This document shows, piece after piece, positions 43,204 to 62,973 of a DNA stretch of 64,000 nucleotides. The notes beneath the pieces are model-generated. The model had not been told where the DNA came from and did no database searches. It was given only the letters and a program-made list of their open reading frames with translations. How positions within the stretch are numbered: position 1 is the stretch's first letter; every line of letters starts with the position of its first letter. Source of the DNA: Acidobacteriota bacterium (GTDB lineage: Bacteria > Acidobacteriota > UBA6911 > RPQK01 > CBDDCF01); assembly GCA_965225995.1 (NCBI GenBank), contig CBDDCF010000030.1, forward strand, positions 36,101 to 100,100. Reading direction: 5' to 3'. A program made the translations under genes and the position numbers.

Positions 43204-45180
43204 TCATCTTTGTAACGACATTAGTCGTGTGAAGATGGCCCGGACTGTCGGCGTCAGTCGACCTCGATTGTAGGCATCTCCACATTGGCGGATCGCTTCG
43301 GCGGCCGTTGGGTAGGGGTGAATCACACTGGCCAGCTTCCCGAGCCCCATTCCGGCCTGGATGGCGACACTGATCTCACTAATCAGCTCTCCGGCGTGGG
43401 GTCCGACGACGGTGGCTCCCAGGATCTCGTCCTTCCCTTTTCTCACATGGATCTTGACGAACCCGGAAGTCTCGCCGTCCACGATTGAACGATCCACCTC
43501 CGAGAAATCGTGGCGGAAGGTTTGGTACTCGACTCCCTGCTCCTCCAGATCCCTTTCGTAGAGTCCCACGTGAGCTACTTCGGGATCGGTATAGGTCGAC
43601 CAGGGGATGAGCAGGGAGGAAAACTTGTCCCGACCCAGGAAGAGAGCATTCCGGATCACCAGCCGGGCCATGAAATCGGCCACATGGGTGAACTGGAACT
43701 GGGTGGCGACATCGCCGGCCGAATAGACGTTGGGATTGCTCGTCTGAAGCCGATCATTGACCTTGATCCCGCTCCGGGTATCAAAATCGATTCCGGCTTC
43801 CTGCAGCCCCAGATTATCGACAGTCGGCTTTCGGCCAGCCGCAACCAACAGCTGATCGAATTCGAGCGACCGCTGCAGCCCGGCTTGTTCGAAGATCACT
43901 CGAATGGGTCCATCCAGGCCCTGGCTCTCAATCGAGGAGTAGCTCACTGAATATTCAAAGATCACACCGTCTTCGCGCAGACTGGCAGCCACAACGTCGG
44001 CAGCCTCCGGGTCCTCCTTGGGAAGGATTCCTGCCCGACGAGAGAATACCGTCACGGCCGATCCCAGGCGAGAGAAAGCTTGTGCCAGCTCGAGCCCGAT
44101 TGGGCCAGCGCCGATCACCCCCAGGCGGGGAGGCAGTTGGGTCAGGTTGAAGACCGACGCATTGGTTAAGAACGGGGATTCCCGAAGTCCCGGAATGGAG
44201 GGAATCGCCGCCGTTCCTCCTGTGGCGATCACGGCCTTGGAAAAACGCAGGGTCTCGCCGTTGACCCGGACCGAATCAGGGCCGCTAAAAGTGCCTCTTC
44301 CCAGAAAGACGTCGACCCCGAGTCTGGCAAATCGCTCGGCCGAGTCATGCGGAGCGATGTCGGCTCGAATCCGACGGAGTCGTTCCATCACGGCCGGGAA
44401 GTCGACCGATACCTGTCCATCGATTCGGATCCCGAATTCTGCGGCCCGTTTTACAGCCGCTGCCGCTCGCGCACATCGAAGCAAGGCCTTGGAGGGCACG
44501 CATCCTACGGTGAGACAATCCCCACCCAAGAGATGAGACTCGATCAGAGCGACCCGGGCTCCCAGGCCGGCTGCCGCAGCTGCCGACACCAGTCCACCCG
44601 TTCCCCCTCCAAGCACGACCAGATTGTACCGTTCCGCAGGGTTAGGGGCCTCCCACCGAGCGGGATGAGCGTGATCGAGAAGCCGGGTATTGTGATCGTC
44701 GAGGGGAGCGATGCCAATCTCTTCCAAATCTTCGGCGGGGAACTCTCCCAGCCTGTCATCCCGCTCCGGCAGTCGCGGTTGCAGCGAATCAGCAGTCGGA
44801 CCGGTCGGGCCCAGAAAATCGGCCCAACTAACCTTGCTTCCATCCGATCTTGTAGCCACCTGACCGTGTTCTTCGTCTTTGGCAAAGCGGTAGAATAAAT
44901 AGTCATCCCGGAAGGGATGAGCCTGCTGAACATGATGGAAGATACCGGCACTGAGCAGAATGTTTCCGATCCGCAAAGCGTCTGCGATATCGCTGGCGAA
45001 ACCTTCACGAATCAGCACCTGAACGGCCTCGCTTCCCACGAAGCATTTGAGGTAGGACTTGGCCGGAAATCCGTGCTTTCGGTCCGCAATATCGAATAAC
45101 TGATGAGTGCGTTGGGCCAGAGCCTCTAGTTCGTTTTTCGAAAATTGGGCCTCTTCCCCTGGGCGATCCTGCTGTGTCAT
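43204..45180 (-). CDS. Pyridine nucleotide-disulfide oxidoreductase (class I flavoprotein disulfide reductase) with N-terminal DEP-like domain
   Basis: Redox-active GGDCLTVGCVPSK, two FAD/NAD Rossmann GxGxxG motifs, C-terminal dimerisation domain. The N-terminal ~190 aa contain FPAKSYLKCFVGSEAVQVLIREGF...LRIGNILLSAGIFHHVQQAHPFRDDYLFYRF, which matches the DEP-domain consensus. Confidence 0.65.
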   Translation of the reverse strand: MTQQDRPGEEAQFSKNELEALAQRTHQLFDIADRKHGFPAKSYLKCFVGSEAVQVLIREGFASDIADALRIGNILLSAGIFHHVQQAHPFRDDYLFYRFAKDEEHGQVATRSDGSKVSWADFLGPTGPTADSLQPRLPERDDRLGEFPAEDLEEIGIAPLDDHNTRLLDHAHPARWEAPNPAERYNLVVLGGGTGGLVSAAAAAGLGARVALIESHLLGGDCLTVGCVPSKALLRCARAAAAVKRAAEFGIRIDGQVSVDFPAVMERLRRIRADIAPHDSAERFARLGVDVFLGRGTFSGPDSVRVNGETLRFSKAVIATGGTAAIPSIPGLRESPFLTNASVFNLTQLPPRLGVIGAGPIGLELAQAFSRLGSAVTVFSRRAGILPKEDPEAADVVAASLREDGVIFEYSVSYSSIESQGLDGPIRVIFEQAGLQRSLEFDQLLVAAGRKPTVDNLGLQEAGIDFDTRSGIKVNDRLQTSNPNVYSAGDVATQFQFTHVADFMARLVIRNALFLGRDKFSSLLIPWSTYTDPEVAHVGLYERDLEEQGVEYQTFRHDFSEVDRSIVDGETSGFVKIHVRKGKDEILGATVVGPHAGELISEISVAIQAGMGLGKLASVIHPYPTAAEAIRQCGDAYNRGRLTPTVRAIFTRLMSLQR

Positions 45181-52515: not shown

Positions 52516-52785
52516 TTCCTGCGAGCTTCCTCCCAGGGATTCTCGCCACTCTTCCCGAGGTCCGTGCTACGCTCCTACGGAGGAGTATGGTAGTCTCTGA
52601 AAATTCCTAACCGGTTTATTATCAACGGTGTATCAAACTAGAGTCCAGGCTGGAGGGGGATTTGATCGAGCGGCTCGACGCTCGTATTGGGGGTTTGGTT
52701 TCACGGAATTCAGGCAGGACTGCCCTGCGGGCTTTTTTTTTGCGAAGCGCCAGTTTCAGTCTCGAAAAACAGGAGAGCGGAAGCC

Positions 52786-53937
52786 ATGTCAGTCACAGTC
52801 TTGAGTCAGCTCGAAGTTGAGCGCTACAGTCGACATCTGCTTCTGCCGGAGGTAGGAGTCCAGGGCCAGTTGCGCCTGCGTAACTCGAGCGTACTTTGCA
52901 TCGGTGCCGGTGGACTCGGATCACCCTTGGCTCTGTACCTGGCAGCCGCCGGTGTAGGGCGCCTCGGAGTCGTCGACTTCGATTCCGTCGAATACAGCAA
53001 CCTGCAACGCCAAATCCTGCACTCGACGGCAGATGTGGGGCGCTCAAAGTTGGCTTCTGCTCGCGATTCGATTGAGGCCATCAATCCTGAAATCCGGGTC
53101 GAGACTTTTGAAACCAGACTCAGCTCCCAGAATGCTCTTCGACTCTTCCGCGACTTTGACTTGGTGGTGGATGGGACAGACAACTTTCCTGCTCGCTACC
53201 TGATCAACGATGCCTGTGTCCTGAGTGGCCGGCCCAATGTCTATGGCAGTATTTTCCGTTTTGAAGGACAGGCCTCGGGCTTCGCCCATGACGGCGGCCC
53301 CTGCTACCGCTGCCTCTACCCCGAGCCTCCTCCTCTCGGCTTGGTGCCTTCCTGTGCCGAGGGAGGAGTTCTCGGAATCTTGCCGGACCTGATCGGGGTG
53401 ATCCAGGCGACTGAAGCTCTGAAGCTGCTGCGCGGTCGAGGAGAGAGTCTCAGCGGACGCCTTCTCTTGATCGATGCTCTGGGCATGAAATTTCGTGAAT
53501 TGCGCGTGCGACGAGATGCCGATTGCCCGGTCTGTGGTGACCATCCAACGATTCTCGAACTGATCGACTACGAGGCTTTCTGTGGAATCGGAGTCGAGGA
53601 TGACACCAGCGCAGACGATGTTCCTGAGATCACGGCTACCCAGCTACACAGGAAGCTGCAAAGGCAACCTGAGCTTCGACTGCTCGATGTGCGCAACCCC
53701 AACGAGCTGGAAATCTGCAGCCTGGAGGGTGCTCTTACGATTCCGCTCGACCAGTTGTCCGCTCGCACCGGAGAGCTTGATCCAGAGTGGAACGTGGTTG
53801 TCTTTTGTCGGTCGGGAGTGCGCAGCCTTCGCGCCATCAAGCAGCTCCAGGAGCTTGGATACTCCCGTCTGACCAATCTCAAAGGCGGAATTCTGGCCTG
53901 GGCCGATGAGATAGATCCAGAAATGGCCAAGTATTGA
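52786..53937 (+). CDS. Molybdopterin/thiamine-synthase adenylyltransferase (MoeB/ThiF-like) with C-terminal rhodanese domain (MoeZ-type)
   Basis: GAGGLGSP nucleotide loop, CxxC pairs (CYRC ... CPVC), C-terminal rhodanese with CRSGVRS active-site loop. Confidence 0.75.
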   Translation: MSVTVLSQLEVERYSRHLLLPEVGVQGQLRLRNSSVLCIGAGGLGSPLALYLAAAGVGRLGVVDFDSVEYSNLQRQILHSTADVGRSKLASARDSIEAINPEIRVETFETRLSSQNALRLFRDFDLVVDGTDNFPARYLINDACVLSGRPNVYGSIFRFEGQASGFAHDGGPCYRCLYPEPPPLGLVPSCAEGGVLGILPDLIGVIQATEALKLLRGRGESLSGRLLLIDALGMKFRELRVRRDADCPVCGDHPTILELIDYEAFCGIGVEDDTSADDVPEITATQLHRKLQRQPELRLLDVRNPNELEICSLEGALTIPLDQLSARTGELDPEWNVVVFCRSGVRSLRAIKQLQELGYSRLTNLKGGILAWADEIDPEMAKY

Positions 53938-54417
53938 GAGGTTGTCCATGATTTCCCGCAACTGGAGAATTCGATGTGGTCCTTGGCGGGCATTGGATGA
54001 GCAATGCGGATACCTTCGGCCTGGCCGTTGGACCCTGGGCCGCGCTGCGCTCCGCGGCTCTGATAGGGTGCCCGGAAGCTCAGTTGGAGTCGATCAGCGG
54101 AGCCTGTAATTGGAACGCTGATTCTCAGAGCCCCGAGCCCGCGAGGGGTATCGGATGCCCGCTCCTTGCTCCAGAGAGACGATTTGCTAATGCTTTCCTC
54201 TCCCAAGTCCAACTCGCCCTGGGCTGATTCGGAAGGGCAAAGGCACGGGGGAGCAGCCGACAAGGCTGCAATCCAGCTGGTGAGAGTCCAGCCGTGTGAA
54301 TTACTCGTTCACACACGTATCGATGCCGCTGCTCGGGGCAGGTAACCAACCGAGATTTGCGTGGTGTAAACGGCCTGGCCGTCCTTCAAAAGAAGCGGCG
54401 GGAGCAACCTGGAGGTC

Positions 54418-56902: not shown

Positions 56903-57260
56903 GGCTCCCTGAGACAGCTGCGACGCTTGATCTCGGTTGTCAACGACAGCTCCAGACTCGCTTCGCACCCATCTGCTTTGCCTCTTGCGATGCAAGTCTT
57001 GCTTTGTAGGAGTGAGATGTGCTGACGAACTCCGCTTTCCTGGAAGGAGAGCTGGAGGAAGAATGCTCGGGGTATGAGGGCGGCTGGCGCCCAGGCCTGC
57101 TGGCTGGGGCGGAGCCGTGTAAGGATGACCTCCCAGGATGTCATCCGGAATCAATCTCATCCACCCGACTTCGCTGTCAGCCAGCGGTGCTCTCGCAAAA
57201 TCAACAAACCGAGGGCGATCCAGAGAGTAATCAGCAGAAGATTCCCGATCGCAAACCCCG

Positions 57261-58496
57261 TCACTTGCAAAGGCAGGACCTGCGTCCCCAGGTACACGAA
57301 CAGGCGGAGAGGACATCCCCAGCCCGTACAAAGAATGTGTCCAGCGCCTGCTTGGCCTTATACTTTTCCTCTCTCGTGGTGGGTAGCCAAAGCAGATGGC
57401 GGGCCGTGTTCATGATCGAGTAGTCACTCGAATTCTCAGCCGACTTGGCCCATCGGATGATGGAAAACCCCACTCCAGCGGCAATCACCCCATAGGCTCC
57501 AAGTGCGATCACCGGAAGGGCCAGTAGTACGCCTGCCAGGCTGGCATACTTGACCAGGCGGGAAACCAGGAAGGCCTGAATGGTCACTGCCATGATGTTG
57601 ACCCAGAAGAAGAAGTTCCCATAGAAGGCGCCTATGAACGCCCCTACGTCGAGAGCTGGATTGGAGGCTTGCAGAGCAGCAGCCTGCCGGGTCACCATCT
57701 CGGCTAGGATGTATTCGCCGGTGGTATTGACGAGGTTGAGGAGGATTAACAAGAGAGCAATCAGCGAAATGTAGCGGCTCTTGAAGACCAGCGCGAAACC
57801 GTTTCCTGGAGCCAGCACCTTGTGAGCCGGAGCCGAAGCTCGCGGGTTTCGTTCTTCGCGCCGATCGATGAGTAAGTACAGACCCACCGTGACGAGCAAA
57901 ATAGCGGCTGATAGGTGCATCATCAAAGCTGGCCGGATCCCCGATTCGAAGAGTTTGCTAGCCAGGAAAGCACCCACCGGAGCCCCTGCAGTCAGACCGA
58001 CTCCGATGATTGGGAAGAGCCGATTCCCAGCTCCTTCGCTGTAGATGTCGTTGGCGTAAGACCAGAACTGGGCGATGATGGCCAGGCTGAAGAATCCCAC
58101 CCAGATGAAGAACATCGTTCCCACATAGGGGACGCCGGCAGAGACCGCCAGGGCAAACATTTCAATATTGATGAGGAAGAAAAGAGTCACTCCAAGGATC
58201 AGCTTCATGCGATCGACCCGCGAGGCGAACCAGCTATAAGCCGGAATGAATGCCATCAAGATGAGGGCCTGGCTGGCTGCCGCATAAGACTTTCCGATCG
58301 CACCACCCTCGAGCAGAATGAGCGGTTCCCGCAGGGTCTTGAGAATGTAATAACAGACCAGAACAAGAAAGATGTTGGAAGACATCAGGAGGACCGTTCT
58401 CGACTCTCCTGCCTGAACCTCGCTGAAGACCGCCAACAGACGGGAGAGAATTCCTCGGCGCTCCGGATCATCCCGTGAAATCTGGGAAGTGTCCAT
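57261..58496 (-). CDS. TLC/NTT-like nucleotide (ATP/ADP) transporter family membrane protein; C-terminus possibly truncated
   Basis: 10-11 predicted TM helices. N-terminal region (LLMSSNIFLVLVCYYILKTLREPLIL) resembles the first TM/K-x-x-L(R/K)D motif of Tlc/Npt proteins. Confidence 0.45.
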   Translation of the reverse strand: MDTSQISRDDPERRGILSRLLAVFSEVQAGESRTVLLMSSNIFLVLVCYYILKTLREPLILLEGGAIGKSYAAASQALILMAFIPAYSWFASRVDRMKLILGVTLFFLINIEMFALAVSAGVPYVGTMFFIWVGFFSLAIIAQFWSYANDIYSEGAGNRLFPIIGVGLTAGAPVGAFLASKLFESGIRPALMMHLSAAILLVTVGLYLLIDRREERNPRASAPAHKVLAPGNGFALVFKSRYISLIALLLILLNLVNTTGEYILAEMVTRQAAALQASNPALDVGAFIGAFYGNFFFWVNIMAVTIQAFLVSRLVKYASLAGVLLALPVIALGAYGVIAAGVGFSIIRWAKSAENSSDYSIMNTARHLLWLPTTREEKYKAKQALDTFFVRAGDVLSACSCTWGRRSCLCK

Positions 58497-58597
58497 TAAC
58501 CTCTCATTTCTCGGAGTGGAAAGTATCCCGAGTATGCGGGGAAGGCGCCAAGTACACAAGACGGAGTGCTTGCCGTGCCGCCCTACGTTTGGCTACT

Positions 58598-60252
58598 CTA
58601 GCCCGGATTATGCAAGAACCGTAGGCCGGAGTTGAAAAGAGAGTCGAAAGTGGCCTAAATCGGGAGATCGAAGGTGCGACAGGCGGATTTTCGAGGGATC
58701 TCTGTGGACGAGCCGTGTGGAGTAGGTGGGGGAGTGAATTTCAGACGGAGTTGGGCCTGAATGAGTGTCCTAAACGATCATTCGGGAGCTAGGAGAGGCT
58801 AGCTGGAGTTAAGGCGATTCAAGACGAGGAGGAAAAGGGCCTGCTCCGGAAAGCCGGAGGAAAGATGGGCCCAGATGCGTCGAGTGGTTTGTCGAACCCG
58901 CGCCCCAATTTTGAGGACCCGGCGACGCAAAGTTTCGATTTCGAGTTTCTGCCAGGGGGTTCCATACAGATAATCGCGGAGTCGGACGAACATCTGGTAA
59001 GCCAGCCCATGCAGGAGAAGTCGAAACTGGTTGGCCAGGAATCGATGACAGCTCAGCCGATCCATACTCAGATGGTTCTTAAAAGCCTTGATGAAGTTCT
59101 CCGACTGTCCTCGATCGGTGTAGTGATCATAAAGGGACTGGGAAGAGAGATCGTCTCGGTTGGTGACCACAAAGCGACGATTGATCCCCCGATGGTCGAC
59201 TTCCACTTTGACGATGACGCGACGGAATCGATCCCAGCTGCTGGCTCGATAAAGAAACTCGTCAAACTGACGCTGTTTTTCCTCGAACTCGTCGAACCTG
59301 AGTCGAGTCGACTCGAGCATCGGCTCGACCATCCGTTGCCGGCGGGGGTTCCGGCTTAACCCAATGACATATTGGAGTTTGTTCTCTTCAGATTCACAGA
59401 ACTCGTAGAGCCGAGGCGTGGCAAAGCCGCTGTCGGCCCGGATCTCAATTTGAAGTTCCTTGCCAACTTCTCGTCGAATGGCTTTCACGATTCGTTTCAG
59501 AATAGGAACGATGTGAGAGGCAGCCCCCTTGTTTCCAGGCCTCAATACGACAGTGACCAGGTCCCCCGTAACGGCATCGAAGATCAGCCAAGGATGCAGA
59601 ATGTGGTTTCGGTAATAGCCGTGGTAAAAAGAGAATTCCTGTTGGCCGTGAGTGTGGTCGTCAGTACTGTCCAGGTCCAAGATGACCGGGTCGGGGCGTC
59701 TCTTCTTCAGCGAGCGGACATAACGCTGTAGGAACCCCCGGCTCAGACGCATGAGATCCTTCTTGCTGACAGAGTTTTCCAAACGGGAAAAAGTTGCCTG
59801 GGTGGCCAAGTCAGGATCGCTCTCAGGTAACTGATCACAGACGGTCTTGAGCATGGGATCCGAGCGCAGCGTGTCCGCGTCATTGCAGTCTTCGTACCCG
59901 GCAACGATCTGAAAGACTCGTTGTCGGATCAGCTGTAACTGCTCATGACGAACGTAGCGTTGGTCCCGGCTATCCGCAATACACGAACTGAAGTCCTCGC
60001 AGAGTCGATCTTGCCGATCCAGGGAACCAAACAACAGCCATCCGGCATCGGAAGTCAGGTTCCCACCATCAAAACGAGCCGTGATTTGTGTGTGCGAGTG
60101 AAATGCCAGGGTGGTCTGACAGACTGGGTTTGACATTGCCGTAGTTCTCCGATAAGGATTTGTTTAATAAACCCTTTTATATCAGAGAGATACGGCATTT
60201 TTTCTGGTCCCCAATCCACTCGAATCCGGATCTCTTGCATAATCCGGGCTAG
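58598..60252 (-). mobile_element. IS1380/IS4-like insertion sequence (1655 bp) with perfect 20-bp terminal inverted repeats
   Basis: CTAGCCCGGATTATGCAAGA at 58598-58617 and its exact reverse complement at 60233-60252. If CTAG is the target duplication, the TIR is the 16 bp beginning with CC. Confidence 0.75.
58799..60136 (-). CDS. DDE transposase (IS1380/IS4-like, DDE_Tnp_1)
   Basis: 445 aa; DLDSTDDHTHG and DSGF acidic motifs. Confidence 0.75.
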   Translation of the reverse strand: MSNPVCQTTLAFHSHTQITARFDGGNLTSDAGWLLFGSLDRQDRLCEDFSSCIADSRDQRYVRHEQLQLIRQRVFQIVAGYEDCNDADTLRSDPMLKTVCDQLPESDPDLATQATFSRLENSVSKKDLMRLSRGFLQRYVRSLKKRRPDPVILDLDSTDDHTHGQQEFSFYHGYYRNHILHPWLIFDAVTGDLVTVVLRPGNKGAASHIVPILKRIVKAIRREVGKELQIEIRADSGFATPRLYEFCESEENKLQYVIGLSRNPRRQRMVEPMLESTRLRFDEFEEKQRQFDEFLYRASSWDRFRRVIVKVEVDHRGINRRFVVTNRDDLSSQSLYDHYTDRGQSENFIKAFKNHLSMDRLSCHRFLANQFRLLLHGLAYQMFVRLRDYLYGTPWQKLEIETLRRRVLKIGARVRQTTRRIWAHLSSGFPEQALFLLVLNRLNSS

Positions 60253-60706
60253 AACACGATACAGGCGATTCTCAACCGTTTCCCTGGAAGGATAGCTGTC
60301 GGGGGCCACATCAAAAGCGGCCACTCAGGGCCGGGTCAAAACCGGCCAGTGATCTAGTAGTTATATCCTCGCCTTGAACACATTTCAATCCTTGTGAAGG
60401 CCTCCGTGAGGAGGCTGTACGGCCTGCTGGTCGGGGTGGGTTTGCTGTGAGCCCGTGAGCAGGGCGTTCGTTGACCGGTTCGGCCGGTTCTTGGACCGCG
60501 AAGCTGGTCGATCCGGAATCTTCTTTCTTGTTGGTATGTCCAGTAGCAGAAGCGGTGCGTAACTGTGGGAAACGAGCGAGCACCGCGAGCCGTTTTCCAA
60601 GCGCTGTGGGAACGGTGGAAGAACCGATGCATGGGCCAGCTTCTCGATGTGACCGTTCTCCACGGTTTCCATAGCGCGGCAGTTTCCACGGCTTTCCGGT
60701 TCCGGA

Positions 60707-61480
60707 TCATTTCTTTTCTCCTCGCTTCTTGGTCGACTTCTCCCGTTGTTGACGTTCGTAGAGGCGATAGCTCTTGCCTCGAATGAAGGTCACCTCCGAA
60801 ACGTGTAGAAAACGATCCAGCAGCGCAGAGGTGGCCGCCGTGTCTCCTCCCAGCATCGCTCCCCAGTCCTCGAGTGGTCGGTTCGAACTGATAATGGTCG
60901 AGGTCTTCTGGTAGCGGCGATGCAGGATCTCCAGCAGATCTTCAGCCGCCGAGTCGGGCACTCTCCGAAGTCCCAGATCCTCGATGATCAGCAGCGGGAT
61001 CCGGGTCATCTCTGCAATGTAGGGTCGGCGCATCCCGGTGGCAGTGGCTTCAGCGATGTCCTCGAGCAGATCGAAAGCCGACTTGTACTGTACCCGGTGA
61101 CCCGCTTCCACAGCCTTGATTGCCACCGTGATGATCAGATGTGTTTTGCCGACTCCCGCCTGACCGATGACCAACCAGCCGCGACACTGTTCGATGAATC
61201 GGCAAGTGGCCAGATCAAAGATCTGCTGCCGATTGATCGAGGTGTTGAAAGAGAACCTGAAGTCCTCCAAGAGTTTGCGTTCCGGGAACTGGGCCTGGCG
61301 GAGACATCGCTCCAGCAAACGGTCGCGCCGGCGGGTGAGTTCGTCGTCGATGAGCAGCTCAAAGAACTCCTGATGAGAGAGACGGCCCTGGATGGCTTGT
61401 TGCAGCCGTACGTCAAAGACCTGGGCCAGGCCCGAGAGCCTGAGGTGGCGAAGTTTCCGTTCCAGTTCCAATGAGATCAT
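60707..61480 (-). CDS. istB: IS21-family helper ATPase IstB
   Basis: Walker A GQAGVGKTHL, Walker B LLIIEDLG. Confidence 0.9.
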   Translation of the reverse strand: MISLELERKLRHLRLSGLAQVFDVRLQQAIQGRLSHQEFFELLIDDELTRRRDRLLERCLRQAQFPERKLLEDFRFSFNTSINRQQIFDLATCRFIEQCRGWLVIGQAGVGKTHLIITVAIKAVEAGHRVQYKSAFDLLEDIAEATATGMRRPYIAEMTRIPLLIIEDLGLRRVPDSAAEDLLEILHRRYQKTSTIISSNRPLEDWGAMLGGDTAATSALLDRFLHVSEVTFIRGKSYRLYERQQREKSTKKRGEKK

Positions 61481-62973
61481 TCCGGGTCTCCTGAGCGGGG
61501 AGTGAGTTGGTACTCAGACAGCGGCCGAATCAACTCGTGGTCGGAGGTGAATAGAGAGCGTTGCGGCACGTCTAGTCGCTTGCATAAAGCCACCAGGGTC
61601 CGATAGCGGAAGGCATCGTGAGAGAGAGCCTTGGCACAGGCTTCATTGACGACCGTGGCCGGGTAGCGTCGGGTCAAAGAGATCATGCCTCTCAGGAGCC
61701 GGTAGGCCAACACGTCGCGCACCTCCAGGGCTCGCACTGCCCAGCGGTGAGCATCAGAGCCAATCCTGCGGGCTTGCCCGAGCAGCTGACTCTCAGTTCG
61801 ATAATGAGCGTAGCGTTTGCGTTCCGGAAGATGTGTGGGTTCGGTCTGGAACTGGCCGGGTTTCCGCTTGGGATGCAGGACGACTTGCTGCTCTCGGAAA
61901 AAGACTCGGACGATCCGGTCATCCCAGTGCACAGCCACTTCACAGCCAAGCAGATGATTGGGTACCGAGTAGAAGGCTCGATCGACTTCGATGTGGCCAT
62001 CCACGGAGACCGTGCGACGGCCGGTACGGAAGAAACTGAAGCGGGAGTCGGGTAGAGGTCGAAGACCCTTCTGTTCCTCCAGGAATCGGGGCCAGACCTG
62101 CTGTTTGGTGGTGCCGTGGATGCGCTGTCGGGCGACCCGCTCGTTCCAGTTCCGTAGATGCTCATTCTGCTCGGCCAGACTCTCGAACCGTCTGCCCTTC
62201 AGGGCACTGGACTTTGTATATCCGATCGTCCTTTCGACTTTTCCATTCTCATTTGGAGAGCCAGGATGGATGGGAATGATGGCAAAACTATAGTGACGGC
62301 CCAGCGCACTGAAAACGGCGTTGATCTCGGGATCGACAAAGCAGGCTCGCGTGACTCCGGCCTTCAGGTTATCCAAGCGAACCACGTCTACCGAGCCACC
62401 AAACCAGTGGAAGGCATTCTCGACACAACGGACGAAGGTCTCCAGATCCTGCCGCCAGACGACCTCCTCATACGAGTGGCGGGAATAACACAGCACTGCC
62501 TTGAACAGGTGGGGGCGACGGTACCGGCCCGATTCGGTTTGTGTCAGAGCTGCTTTGCCAAAGTCCACCTGCATGTCCCGACCGGGTGGAGTTTCCACCC
62601 GAGCGAAGACTCGTGGACTCTCGGCTTTGAGCTTTCTGCAAAACCGTTTGACGGAGTTATACGCTCCATCGAAGCCATGCTCCAAAACCAGGTCTTGCCA
62701 GATCCGCTTGGCATGCAACCCCAGCTCAAGCTTCTTCTGGATTTCCTCCCGAAAAGGCTCACACGAGCTGCGCCGACCCGGGGGCCGCTTTGGCCGCTTT
62801 TGCTCACCCGAGCCGGGGGCCACTTTGGCCGGTTTTGAATCTCGGGCCGGATCATGTCGGGCTACAGTCTCTCGACGAACTCCTGTTTCTCGCTCGATCC
62901 GCCGATACGACCAGCCCAGCTTCAATAGCGCCACAACCGTTTGTTTCTTCTCCATTTTCAGTACATTGACCAT
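61477..62973 (-). CDS. istA: IS21-family transposase IstA
   Basis: HTH + DDE integrase core, 498 aa, 4-bp overlap with istB. Confidence 0.9.
   Translation of the reverse strand: MVNVLKMEKKQTVVALLKLGWSYRRIERETGVRRETVARHDPARDSKPAKVAPGSGEQKRPKRPPGRRSSCEPFREEIQKKLELGLHAKRIWQDLVLEHGFDGAYNSVKRFCRKLKAESPRVFARVETPPGRDMQVDFGKAALTQTESGRYRRPHLFKAVLCYSRHSYEEVVWRQDLETFVRCVENAFHWFGGSVDVVRLDNLKAGVTRACFVDPEINAVFSALGRHYSFAIIPIHPGSPNENGKVERTIGYTKSSALKGRRFESLAEQNEHLRNWNERVARQRIHGTTKQQVWPRFLEEQKGLRPLPDSRFSFFRTGRRTVSVDGHIEVDRAFYSVPNHLLGCEVAVHWDDRIVRVFFREQQVVLHPKRKPGQFQTEPTHLPERKRYAHYRTESQLLGQARRIGSDAHRWAVRALEVRDVLAYRLLRGMISLTRRYPATVVNEACAKALSHDAFRYRTLVALCKRLDVPQRSLFTSDHELIRPLSEYQLTPRSGDPE

Follow-up and report, generated by a model that had tools for sequence, protein, structure and literature searches.

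A probable frameshift-inactivated member of a non-canonical TLC/NTT transporter subfamily in a soil acidobacterium

The stretch of DNA analysed here (hereafter the window) comprises 64,000 nucleotides of an Acidobacteriota bacterium (GCA_965225995.1, contig CBDDCF010000030.1, positions 36,101 to 100,100), and its minus strand carries, at 57261..58496, an open reading frame (ORF) for a membrane protein that had been predicted, from the letters alone, to be a homologue of the TLC/NTT (nucleotide transporter) family of ATP/ADP translocases, possibly truncated by a frameshift. We conclude with reasonable confidence that the whole is best explained as a frameshift-inactivated, stand-alone member of a non-canonical TLC/NTT subfamily. 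The protein itself is a stand-alone member of a non-canonical TLC/NTT subfamily of about 445 amino acid residues, with a major facilitator superfamily (MFS) fold and 12 transmembrane helices (TM), a subfamily that is already known, although uncharacterised, and whose presence is ordinary for a soil acidobacterium.

The ORF starts with an ATG at 58496 and codes for 411 residues plus a stop codon (ORF list and translation); it exists as predicted, and the length of 412 residues first given for it includes the stop. An alternative upstream start, a TTG at 58559, would extend the protein by 21 residues and is used by none of the homologues compared, and scans for promoters and terminators in its vicinity yielded no more than shuffling would lead one to expect. 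The abrupt C-terminus that had been remarked upon (the ORF ends ...DTFFVRAGDVLSACSCTWGRRSCLCK) is a true frame break: in the three-frame translation of the minus strand, the hydrophobic helix resumes in the next frame where the ORF derails (LFVYLGTQVLPLQVTGFAIGNLLLITLWIALGLLILREHRWLTAKSGG, followed by a stop). At this site the window reads CTCTCCGCCTGTTCG and the near-identical contigs L001 and L002 read CTCTCCGCCCTGTTCG (blastn), a single C being missing from a CCC run at 57303-57305, in codons 398/399; CCC is likewise found in contigs L093 and L094 when these are compared with the window by blastn. Insertion of a C after codon 398 yields a protein of 446 residues (repaired coding sequence 57157..58496). 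The gene as it stands in the window is made up of the following parts, with helix boundaries taken from the AlphaFold2 (AF2) model of the intact relative P0001:

57303..58496, minus strand: in-frame stretch of the TLC/NTT-like gene, comprising codons 1-398 (M1 to A398), with TM1-TM10 and most of TM11
57303..57305, minus strand: frameshift site; after codon 398 (GCC) the window has TG, its relatives CTG; the minus strand reads CTCTCCG-CCTGTTCG
57261..57302, minus strand: out-of-frame tail of the ORF, 13 aberrant residues (CSCTWGRRSCLCK) and a premature TGA at 57261-57263
57157..57300, minus strand: displaced native C-terminus, F400 to G446 and a TGA at 57157-57159, encoding the last part of TM11 and TM12 in full

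The displaced segment lies inside the interval (57019-57423) in which the original prediction had proposed to look for it, and it equals P0001 residue by residue, bar P/H and W/R. P0001, found by database search, has 446 residues, is 99% identical to the window protein and has the C-terminus of the repaired version; it is coded by the metagenome contigs L001 and L002, each of which shares synteny with the window and, over 7.4-8.3 kb, is about 99.4-99.5% identical to it. The other intact alleles, P0516 and P0517, are also of 446 residues each. The 13-residue tail is carried by no homologue in the database search or in the comparison with P0001. The suspected truncation by a frameshift is thus confirmed by the continuation in the other frame and by the CCC of the near-identical contigs. 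No uninterrupted frame runs through TM12, on account of the 1-bp deletion and the premature stop, and what the window encodes is a product without TM12 and without the last part of TM11. The deletion in the CCC run would exchange the last 48 residues for 13 nonsense residues and, since the end of TM11 and TM12 are lost, the 411-residue product would fall short of the six helices of the C-terminal bundle on which an MFS transporter of the rocker-switch type depends.

Assignment of the protein to the TLC/NTT family (TC 2.A.12) is based on several searches that agree with each other. The Pfam profile TLC (PF03219) matches with an E-value of 2.8e-9 and 36.7 bits, against a gathering cut-off of 21, which bears out the N-terminal signature of nucleotide transporters noted originally; the match covers residues 19-116 only (profile positions 10-110 of 491), and the same profile is above its cut-off in all 28 relatives searched (best E-value 1.5e-17). 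A profile built from these 28 relatives and run against 177,635 sequences of the PDB retrieved only NTT1, from Chlamydia pneumoniae (9j3n, E-value 2.9e-10) and from Arabidopsis (9j3j, E-value 2e-6), with an alignment that spans profile positions 128-431 and a weak N-terminal stretch. With hhalign, plant NTT1 was aligned at 96% probability (E-value 4.9e-9) over 333 columns, Q42-394 against T123-528. The AF2 model of intact P0001 (mean pLDDT 85.3, pTM 0.85) has 12 predicted transmembrane helices, in answer to the question of topology raised with the prediction, with TM11 at 375-407 and TM12 at 412-445. When this model was compared with the PDB by Foldseek, ranks 1-5 were all taken by NTT1 (E-values 5e-11 to 6e-7, TMq 0.73-0.75 for inward-open states), and the next matches, SPNS2, NupG, NorA and other MFS proteins, followed at E-values of about 1e-6 and TMq of about 0.65. 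Two signature motifs are also held in common with the NTTs: FWSYANDIY, resembling FWGFANQIT, and DYSIMNTARxLLWLPTxREEKYKAKQAxD.

A generic MFS transporter, of drugs or sugars for instance, for which the TLC match would be spurious, is very improbable. Such a reading could appeal to the shortness of the TLC match, which spans about 100 N-terminal residues, to the alignment of MFS_1 (PF07690) with residues 69-345 and to the many MFS structures that match the model at E-values around 1e-6. However, MFS_1 stays below its gathering score (21.8 bits against 33.4, and 17.1 for the repaired protein), NTT1 is the sole profile match in the PDB and extends over 333 columns in hhalign, NTT-specific motifs are kept and the top five folds are NTT1. 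Pfam thresholds, profile search, hhalign and Foldseek ranking concur, therefore, in a TLC/NTT homologue, and the best matches are not to generic MFS transporters, the outcome that had been named as fatal to the prediction. The NCBIfam model TIGR00769, 'NTP/NDP exchange transporter', did not match at E<=0.01, and neither did any other nucleotide transporter model of NCBIfam; in the repaired protein, whose chain stops 9 residues beyond TM12, Pfam detects no HEAT domain.

We favour a true pseudogene, inactivated by a real deletion and not by an error of the consensus, and this with fair confidence. The same 411-residue product and DNA, with the CC allele, are found in a 7.44-Mb ENA contig (L091), which differs from the window by no gaps and by 4 mismatches, all within insertion sequence (IS) genes, and the CC allele is also present in L092, from the Logan k-mer assembly of run ERR14231558, at 100% identity over 58623-57007 (1617 bp). 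The run in which the frameshift occurs is only 3 bases long. In addition, two orthologues belonging to the same 90% cluster as the window protein are broken in other ways: that of L093 (4001-5328) by a 13-bp deletion at window positions 57736-57748, and that of L094 (2437-5101), part of a circular 7.63-Mb genome with 29x coverage (ERZ26167216 ctg495955), by an ISAzo13-type element inserted in the 5' part of the gene. As these are clearly not homopolymer events, the gene is really being lost in the lineage, and the presence of the CC allele in the k-mer assembly, together with orthologues broken otherwise, leads us to prefer a pseudogene over a sequencing error. The orthologue is intact in L001, L002, P0516 and P0517. 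The window copy also carries the substitutions G75S and G319S, at positions where G319 is invariant and G75 is kept in at least 90% of the family. A generally error-prone assembly was considered and discarded, given that the 10 other ORFs of the window that were tested, including overlapping pairs resembling split genes, have full or near-full coverage of their Pfam domains or show no sign of disruption. We hold it rather likely that the deletion in the window is one among several inactivation events that struck a dispensable gene independently; the transporter appears to be dispensable in this lineage.

The alternative, in which the frameshift is an artefact of sequencing or consensus calling and the organism has CCC and makes a functional transporter of 446 residues, is unlikely, although it deserves serious weight, and several observations speak for it and against a pseudogene. 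The deletion sits in a homopolymer, and the related contigs are long-read assemblies of low coverage (3x to 9x in their names), of which L002 is rich in single-base homopolymer indels, for example against window positions 53588-54084. Non-synonymous changes make up about two thirds of the differences in coding sequence between the window and L001, as noise would predict, and differences cluster on GCCGGC/GCCAGC sites, a possible signature of methylation-linked miscalls, with G75S and G319S among them. Furthermore, the window is probably from the same sample as the ENA and Logan contigs, in which case the CC allele is reproduced by reads and does not represent independent biology, and a systematic basecalling error could also be the source of this allele. 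Against an artefact stand the shortness of the run, the recurrence of the allele, unchanged, in the 7.44-Mb contig and in a k-mer assembly made separately from the reads, the integrity of the other genes of the window and the orthologues broken by a 13-bp deletion and, at 29x, by an IS insertion. To the further idea that the 411-residue product, or the product of a programmed +1/-1 frameshift, is the functional form we give next to no credence: nothing more than the existence of the ORF speaks for it, whereas the C-terminus is in frame in all intact relatives, no other allele has the 13-residue tail, the loss of TM12 would, judging from the model, break the 6+6 architecture of MFS proteins, and inspection of the sequence around 57303 disclosed neither a slippery site nor a stimulator.

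The differences between the window and its relatives show a pattern of their own. Of the 35 substitutions that separate the window from L001, 6 or 7 fall on GCCGGC sites, one of the pair having GCCAGC, GCTGGC or GCCTGC; the differences of this kind against L001/L002 are at window positions 59242, 58274, 57930-57931, 57542, 56269 and 59340, of which 58274 and 57542 correspond to G75S and G319S. Either methylation-linked miscalls or a hotspot of 5-methylcytosine deamination at the sites of a GCCGGC methylase would explain this pattern equally well. Depletion of GCCGGC was considered as a sign of miscalls and set aside: with 43 occurrences where 29 are expected, the motif is not depleted in the window, GCCAGC is twice as frequent as expected (94 against 46), and these counts fit errors or deamination. 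Separately, L001 lacks 7 bp at window positions 53033-53039 and its ThiF/MoeB-rhodanese gene is broken, whereas the window copy (52687-53937) is intact, with full ThiF and Rhodanese domains, which means that each strain or assembly has disrupting indels of its own.

As to the function of the intact protein, it would probably be an inner-membrane carrier or exchanger of the MFS type, working by alternating access on a polar solute, probably anionic and possibly nucleotide-like; the chances of its being a nucleotide, or derived from one, would be even at best. The residues K155, E245, E385 and K527 of AATP1 are described, in the part of PMC4256464 that cites Trentmann et al. (2000), as important for transport and widely conserved in NTTs (in the current AATP1 sequence of 624 residues they are K156, E246, E386 and K528). 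The charged quartet used here is that of the older mutagenesis work. In the hhalign alignment the four positions correspond to A73, G134, N257 and D394, none of the charged residues being kept, and within the subfamily G134, N257 and D394 are invariant and A73 is nearly so. HMMER alignments agree on 3 of the 4 positions, and on the fourth in one of two alignments. The invariant lysine and arginine residues that remain are K53, R56, R159, R313, K351, R366, K378/380/382 and R391. Lacking the charged quartet found in plastid and chlamydial NTT1, the subfamily would not be expected to perform canonical ATP/ADP exchange.

This argument is weakened on three counts: the E385 column differs between the two HMMER alignments, the mapping is a sequence/profile alignment at about 20% identity and not a structural superposition, and microsporidian NTTs that lack 3 of the 4 charged residues are still regarded as nucleotide carriers (PMC4256464), so that loss of the quartet does not rule out nucleotides. 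Even so, the function originally proposed, namely that of a canonical NTT taking up ATP against ADP, or NAD, as in Chlamydia, Rickettsia and plastids, seems unlikely to us. In its favour are the homology to NTT1 along the whole protein, NTT1 being also the closest solved fold, the label 'AAA family ATP:ADP antiporter' given to relatives by JGI, and the fact that nucleotides or NAD are the cargo of every TLC member characterised (PMC5381601). However, on the present alignments and on the quartet as described in that source, lysine would be replaced by alanine, glutamate by glycine, glutamate by asparagine and lysine by aspartate, TIGR00769 does not match, the host genome of about 7.4 Mb bears no sign of reduction, a Gram-negative cell would need passage of nucleotides through its outer membrane, and the supporting names (those of JGI, and 'translocase' at NCBI) are automatic annotation transfers.

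The subfamily is abundant. A homologue search returned at least 5053 clusters at 90% identity (E<=1e-5), with a usual length of 440-452 residues; a search of 1.84 billion representatives with a hidden Markov model (HMM) returned 1424 clusters (50% identity) at E<=1e-30 and 5533 at E<=1e-10; and two peptide patterns alone retrieved 406 loci in the species genomes of GTDB, of which the best 80 are nearly all from Acidobacteriota (chiefly the Vicinamibacteria), while a few carry Lysobacterales or other labels. Two of the earlier suppositions do not survive these numbers. The protein is not short because it is truncated, the 446 residues of the repaired version being the norm of the subfamily, and truncation was accordingly dropped as the cause of its length. 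Nor is the gene unusual for a soil heterotroph, as shown by the thousands of homologue clusters, mostly of Acidobacteriota, and by the catalogue of 2017, in which NTT genes were reported as widespread in free-living bacteria, with only a small clade characterised (Major, Embley & Williams, 2017; PMC5381601). An NTT-like gene of 446 residues in a soil heterotroph genome of about 7.4 Mb is, in short, ordinary.

Among known systems, the closest are NTT1 (AtNTT1/AATP1 and the C. pneumoniae protein; PDB 9j3j, 9j3l, 9j3m, 9j3n and 9j3o), which have in common with the subfamily PF03219, the 12-TM fold of MFS type and the motifs FW(G/S)(F/Y)AN and K-x-K-x-K-x-A-x-D before TM11. They differ from the window protein in that identity is only 16-21%, the core of NTT1 has roughly 500 residues and the subfamily is about 50 residues shorter through shorter loops, the quartet K155, E245, E385 and K527 is A, G, N and D in the subfamily, which has no TIGR00769 match, and the window, unlike the hosts of NTT1, is from a free-living bacterium with a large genome. 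A nearer relative, WP_035353372.1 of Edaphobacter aggregans, included in the dataset of Major et al. (2017; PMC5381601), belongs to the same subfamily, phylum and length class as the window protein and shares 40% of 407 aligned residues with the intact allele (E-value 9e-99). Compared with the homologues of that study, in which residue conservation, gene neighbourhoods and gene decay were not addressed, the window copy is frameshifted and adjoins IS elements. NTT-HEAT proteins are matched by the subfamily profile in hhalign at 96.8% probability (E-value 2.3e-10), have, as the subfamily does, an R-x-G-D motif at the position of NTT1 K527, and share one gene cluster with members of the sister clade described below in Vicinamibacteria. 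The window protein, in contrast, has no HEAT domain and is a separate paralogue, not a split fusion. The suggestion of NAD as substrate goes back to PamNTT4, the NAD+/ADP transporter of Protochlamydia amoebophila, whose non-canonical NTT clade falls together with bacterial NTTs that are uncharacterised (PMC5381601).

By neighbour-joining, 88 sequences fall into two clades. The window protein falls, together with those of L001-L003, L008 and L009, in a 'stand-alone' clade, where no neighbour family occurs in more than 6 of 37 loci; for want of such conserved neighbours, a function could not be read from the gene neighbourhood in this clade. In the sister clade, which accounts for about 40 of the 80 genome loci, the TLC-like gene is part of a conserved cluster consisting of a TLC-HEAT protein of 700-750 residues, often a PknB-like Ser/Thr kinase, the TLC-like gene, a barrel of the Omp85 family of about 400 residues and a protein of about 560 residues. 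The TLC-HEAT genes lie directly upstream of the TLC-like genes (L006 2098-5985, L030 5718-7844 and about 30 more loci), and two different NTT-like transporters are thus found in one cluster. In at least 20 independent assemblies of Vicinamibacteria, the TLC-like and the Omp85-like gene form one ORF, whose linker resembles a Sec signal peptide with an AxA|Q(E/D)TRE site, and this fused ORF apparently specifies a polyprotein that combines a transporter of the inner membrane with a barrel of the outer membrane. The genes in question are at the following positions:

L019 8001-10478; L030 7983-10454; at least 18 other loci: fused TLC-Omp85 ORFs
L006 8571-10256; L019 10498-12252; L009 6098-7798; also L088-L090: genes of the family of about 560 residues

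The latter family has at least 7879 homologues, all annotated as 'hypothetical', and gave no match in Pfam, NCBIfam or the sequences of the PDB. Its members have an N-terminal signal peptide and invariant DxKxxN ... D[FV]G motifs, and the best Foldseek matches of a model (pLDDT 75) are the secreted kinase Fam20C (E-value 2.5e-4) and other kinases, with TM-scores of about 0.3. On the strength of this model, the protein may be an exported or surface kinase-like protein. Its gene always directly follows the Omp85-like gene, and more distant members have no TLC-like neighbour. In L009, the closest relative of the window protein in GTDB (66% identity), divergent genes for the barrel and the kinase-like protein lie directly upstream of the TLC-like gene. 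No homologue of the genes of the sister-clade cluster or of these partners in L009 was found within the 64 kb of the window.

From these arrangements one may speculate that an extracytoplasmic kinase-like module receives its ATP from some of the TLC-like transporters. Extended to the whole subfamily, the idea is that it exports ATP, with ADP coming in, for a kinase-like protein outside the cytoplasm that is handled by the Omp85-like barrel, the window gene being orphaned and decaying; we regard this extension as improbable. It would draw on the conserved cluster of about 40 of the 80 loci, on the fusion of transporter and barrel through a linker like a signal peptide, on the signal peptide, motifs and Fam20C-like fold matches of the protein of about 560 residues, and on the divergent barrel and kinase-like genes in L009. 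However, the window protein is in the stand-alone clade and has no partner in the window, distant kinase-like members pair with Omp85 and not with a TLC-like gene, the TM-scores to kinases are low and the ATP/ADP quartet is absent. Correspondingly, it is doubtful that the acidobacterial TLC-like transporters of about 445 residues, rather than being importers, constitute the ATP supply of an unrecognised envelope system. A non-canonical, stand-alone transporter that has decayed in this strain remains the reading we prefer.

The surroundings of the gene in the window are rich in mobile elements:

58597..60253, minus strand: IS4-family insertion sequence, with a DDE_Tnp_1_4 transposase at 58799-60136 (Pfam E-value 1.2e-139)
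60707-61480 and 61477-62973: IS21 genes IstB and IstA, directly beyond the IS4 element

The IS4 element has perfect 21-bp terminal inverted repeats (58597-58617 and 60233-60253) and no obvious target-site duplication, and its inner end is 101 bp upstream of the ATG of the transporter gene. The similarity between the window and L001 ends exactly at its outer end (60253), and beyond this boundary an IS110 is present in L001 and another IS in L093. The locus is a hotspot for IS elements. Elsewhere in the window, a pyridine-nucleotide-disulphide oxidoreductase (43204-45180, minus strand) has an N-terminal DEP domain (PF00610, E-value 6.6e-17), a domain best known from eukaryotic signalling proteins.

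The correct annotation of the gene is thus that of a frameshifted pseudogene of a TLC/NTT-family transporter, with an intact form of 446 residues, and not that of an 'ATP:ADP antiporter'; it is not evidence of energy or nucleotide parasitism. The case supports the published point that PF03219 is no marker of an intracellular lifestyle. To this we add that the acidobacterial subfamily has, on the alignments used here, lost the charged quartet of the ATP/ADP exchangers, for which reason the label 'ATP:ADP antiporter' on thousands of soil metagenome proteins is probably wrong in detail, and that a stand-alone paralogue appears to have been inactivated in three different ways in closely related strains. 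The module of Omp85-like and kinase-like proteins in relatives may offer a lead to the real function of the family.

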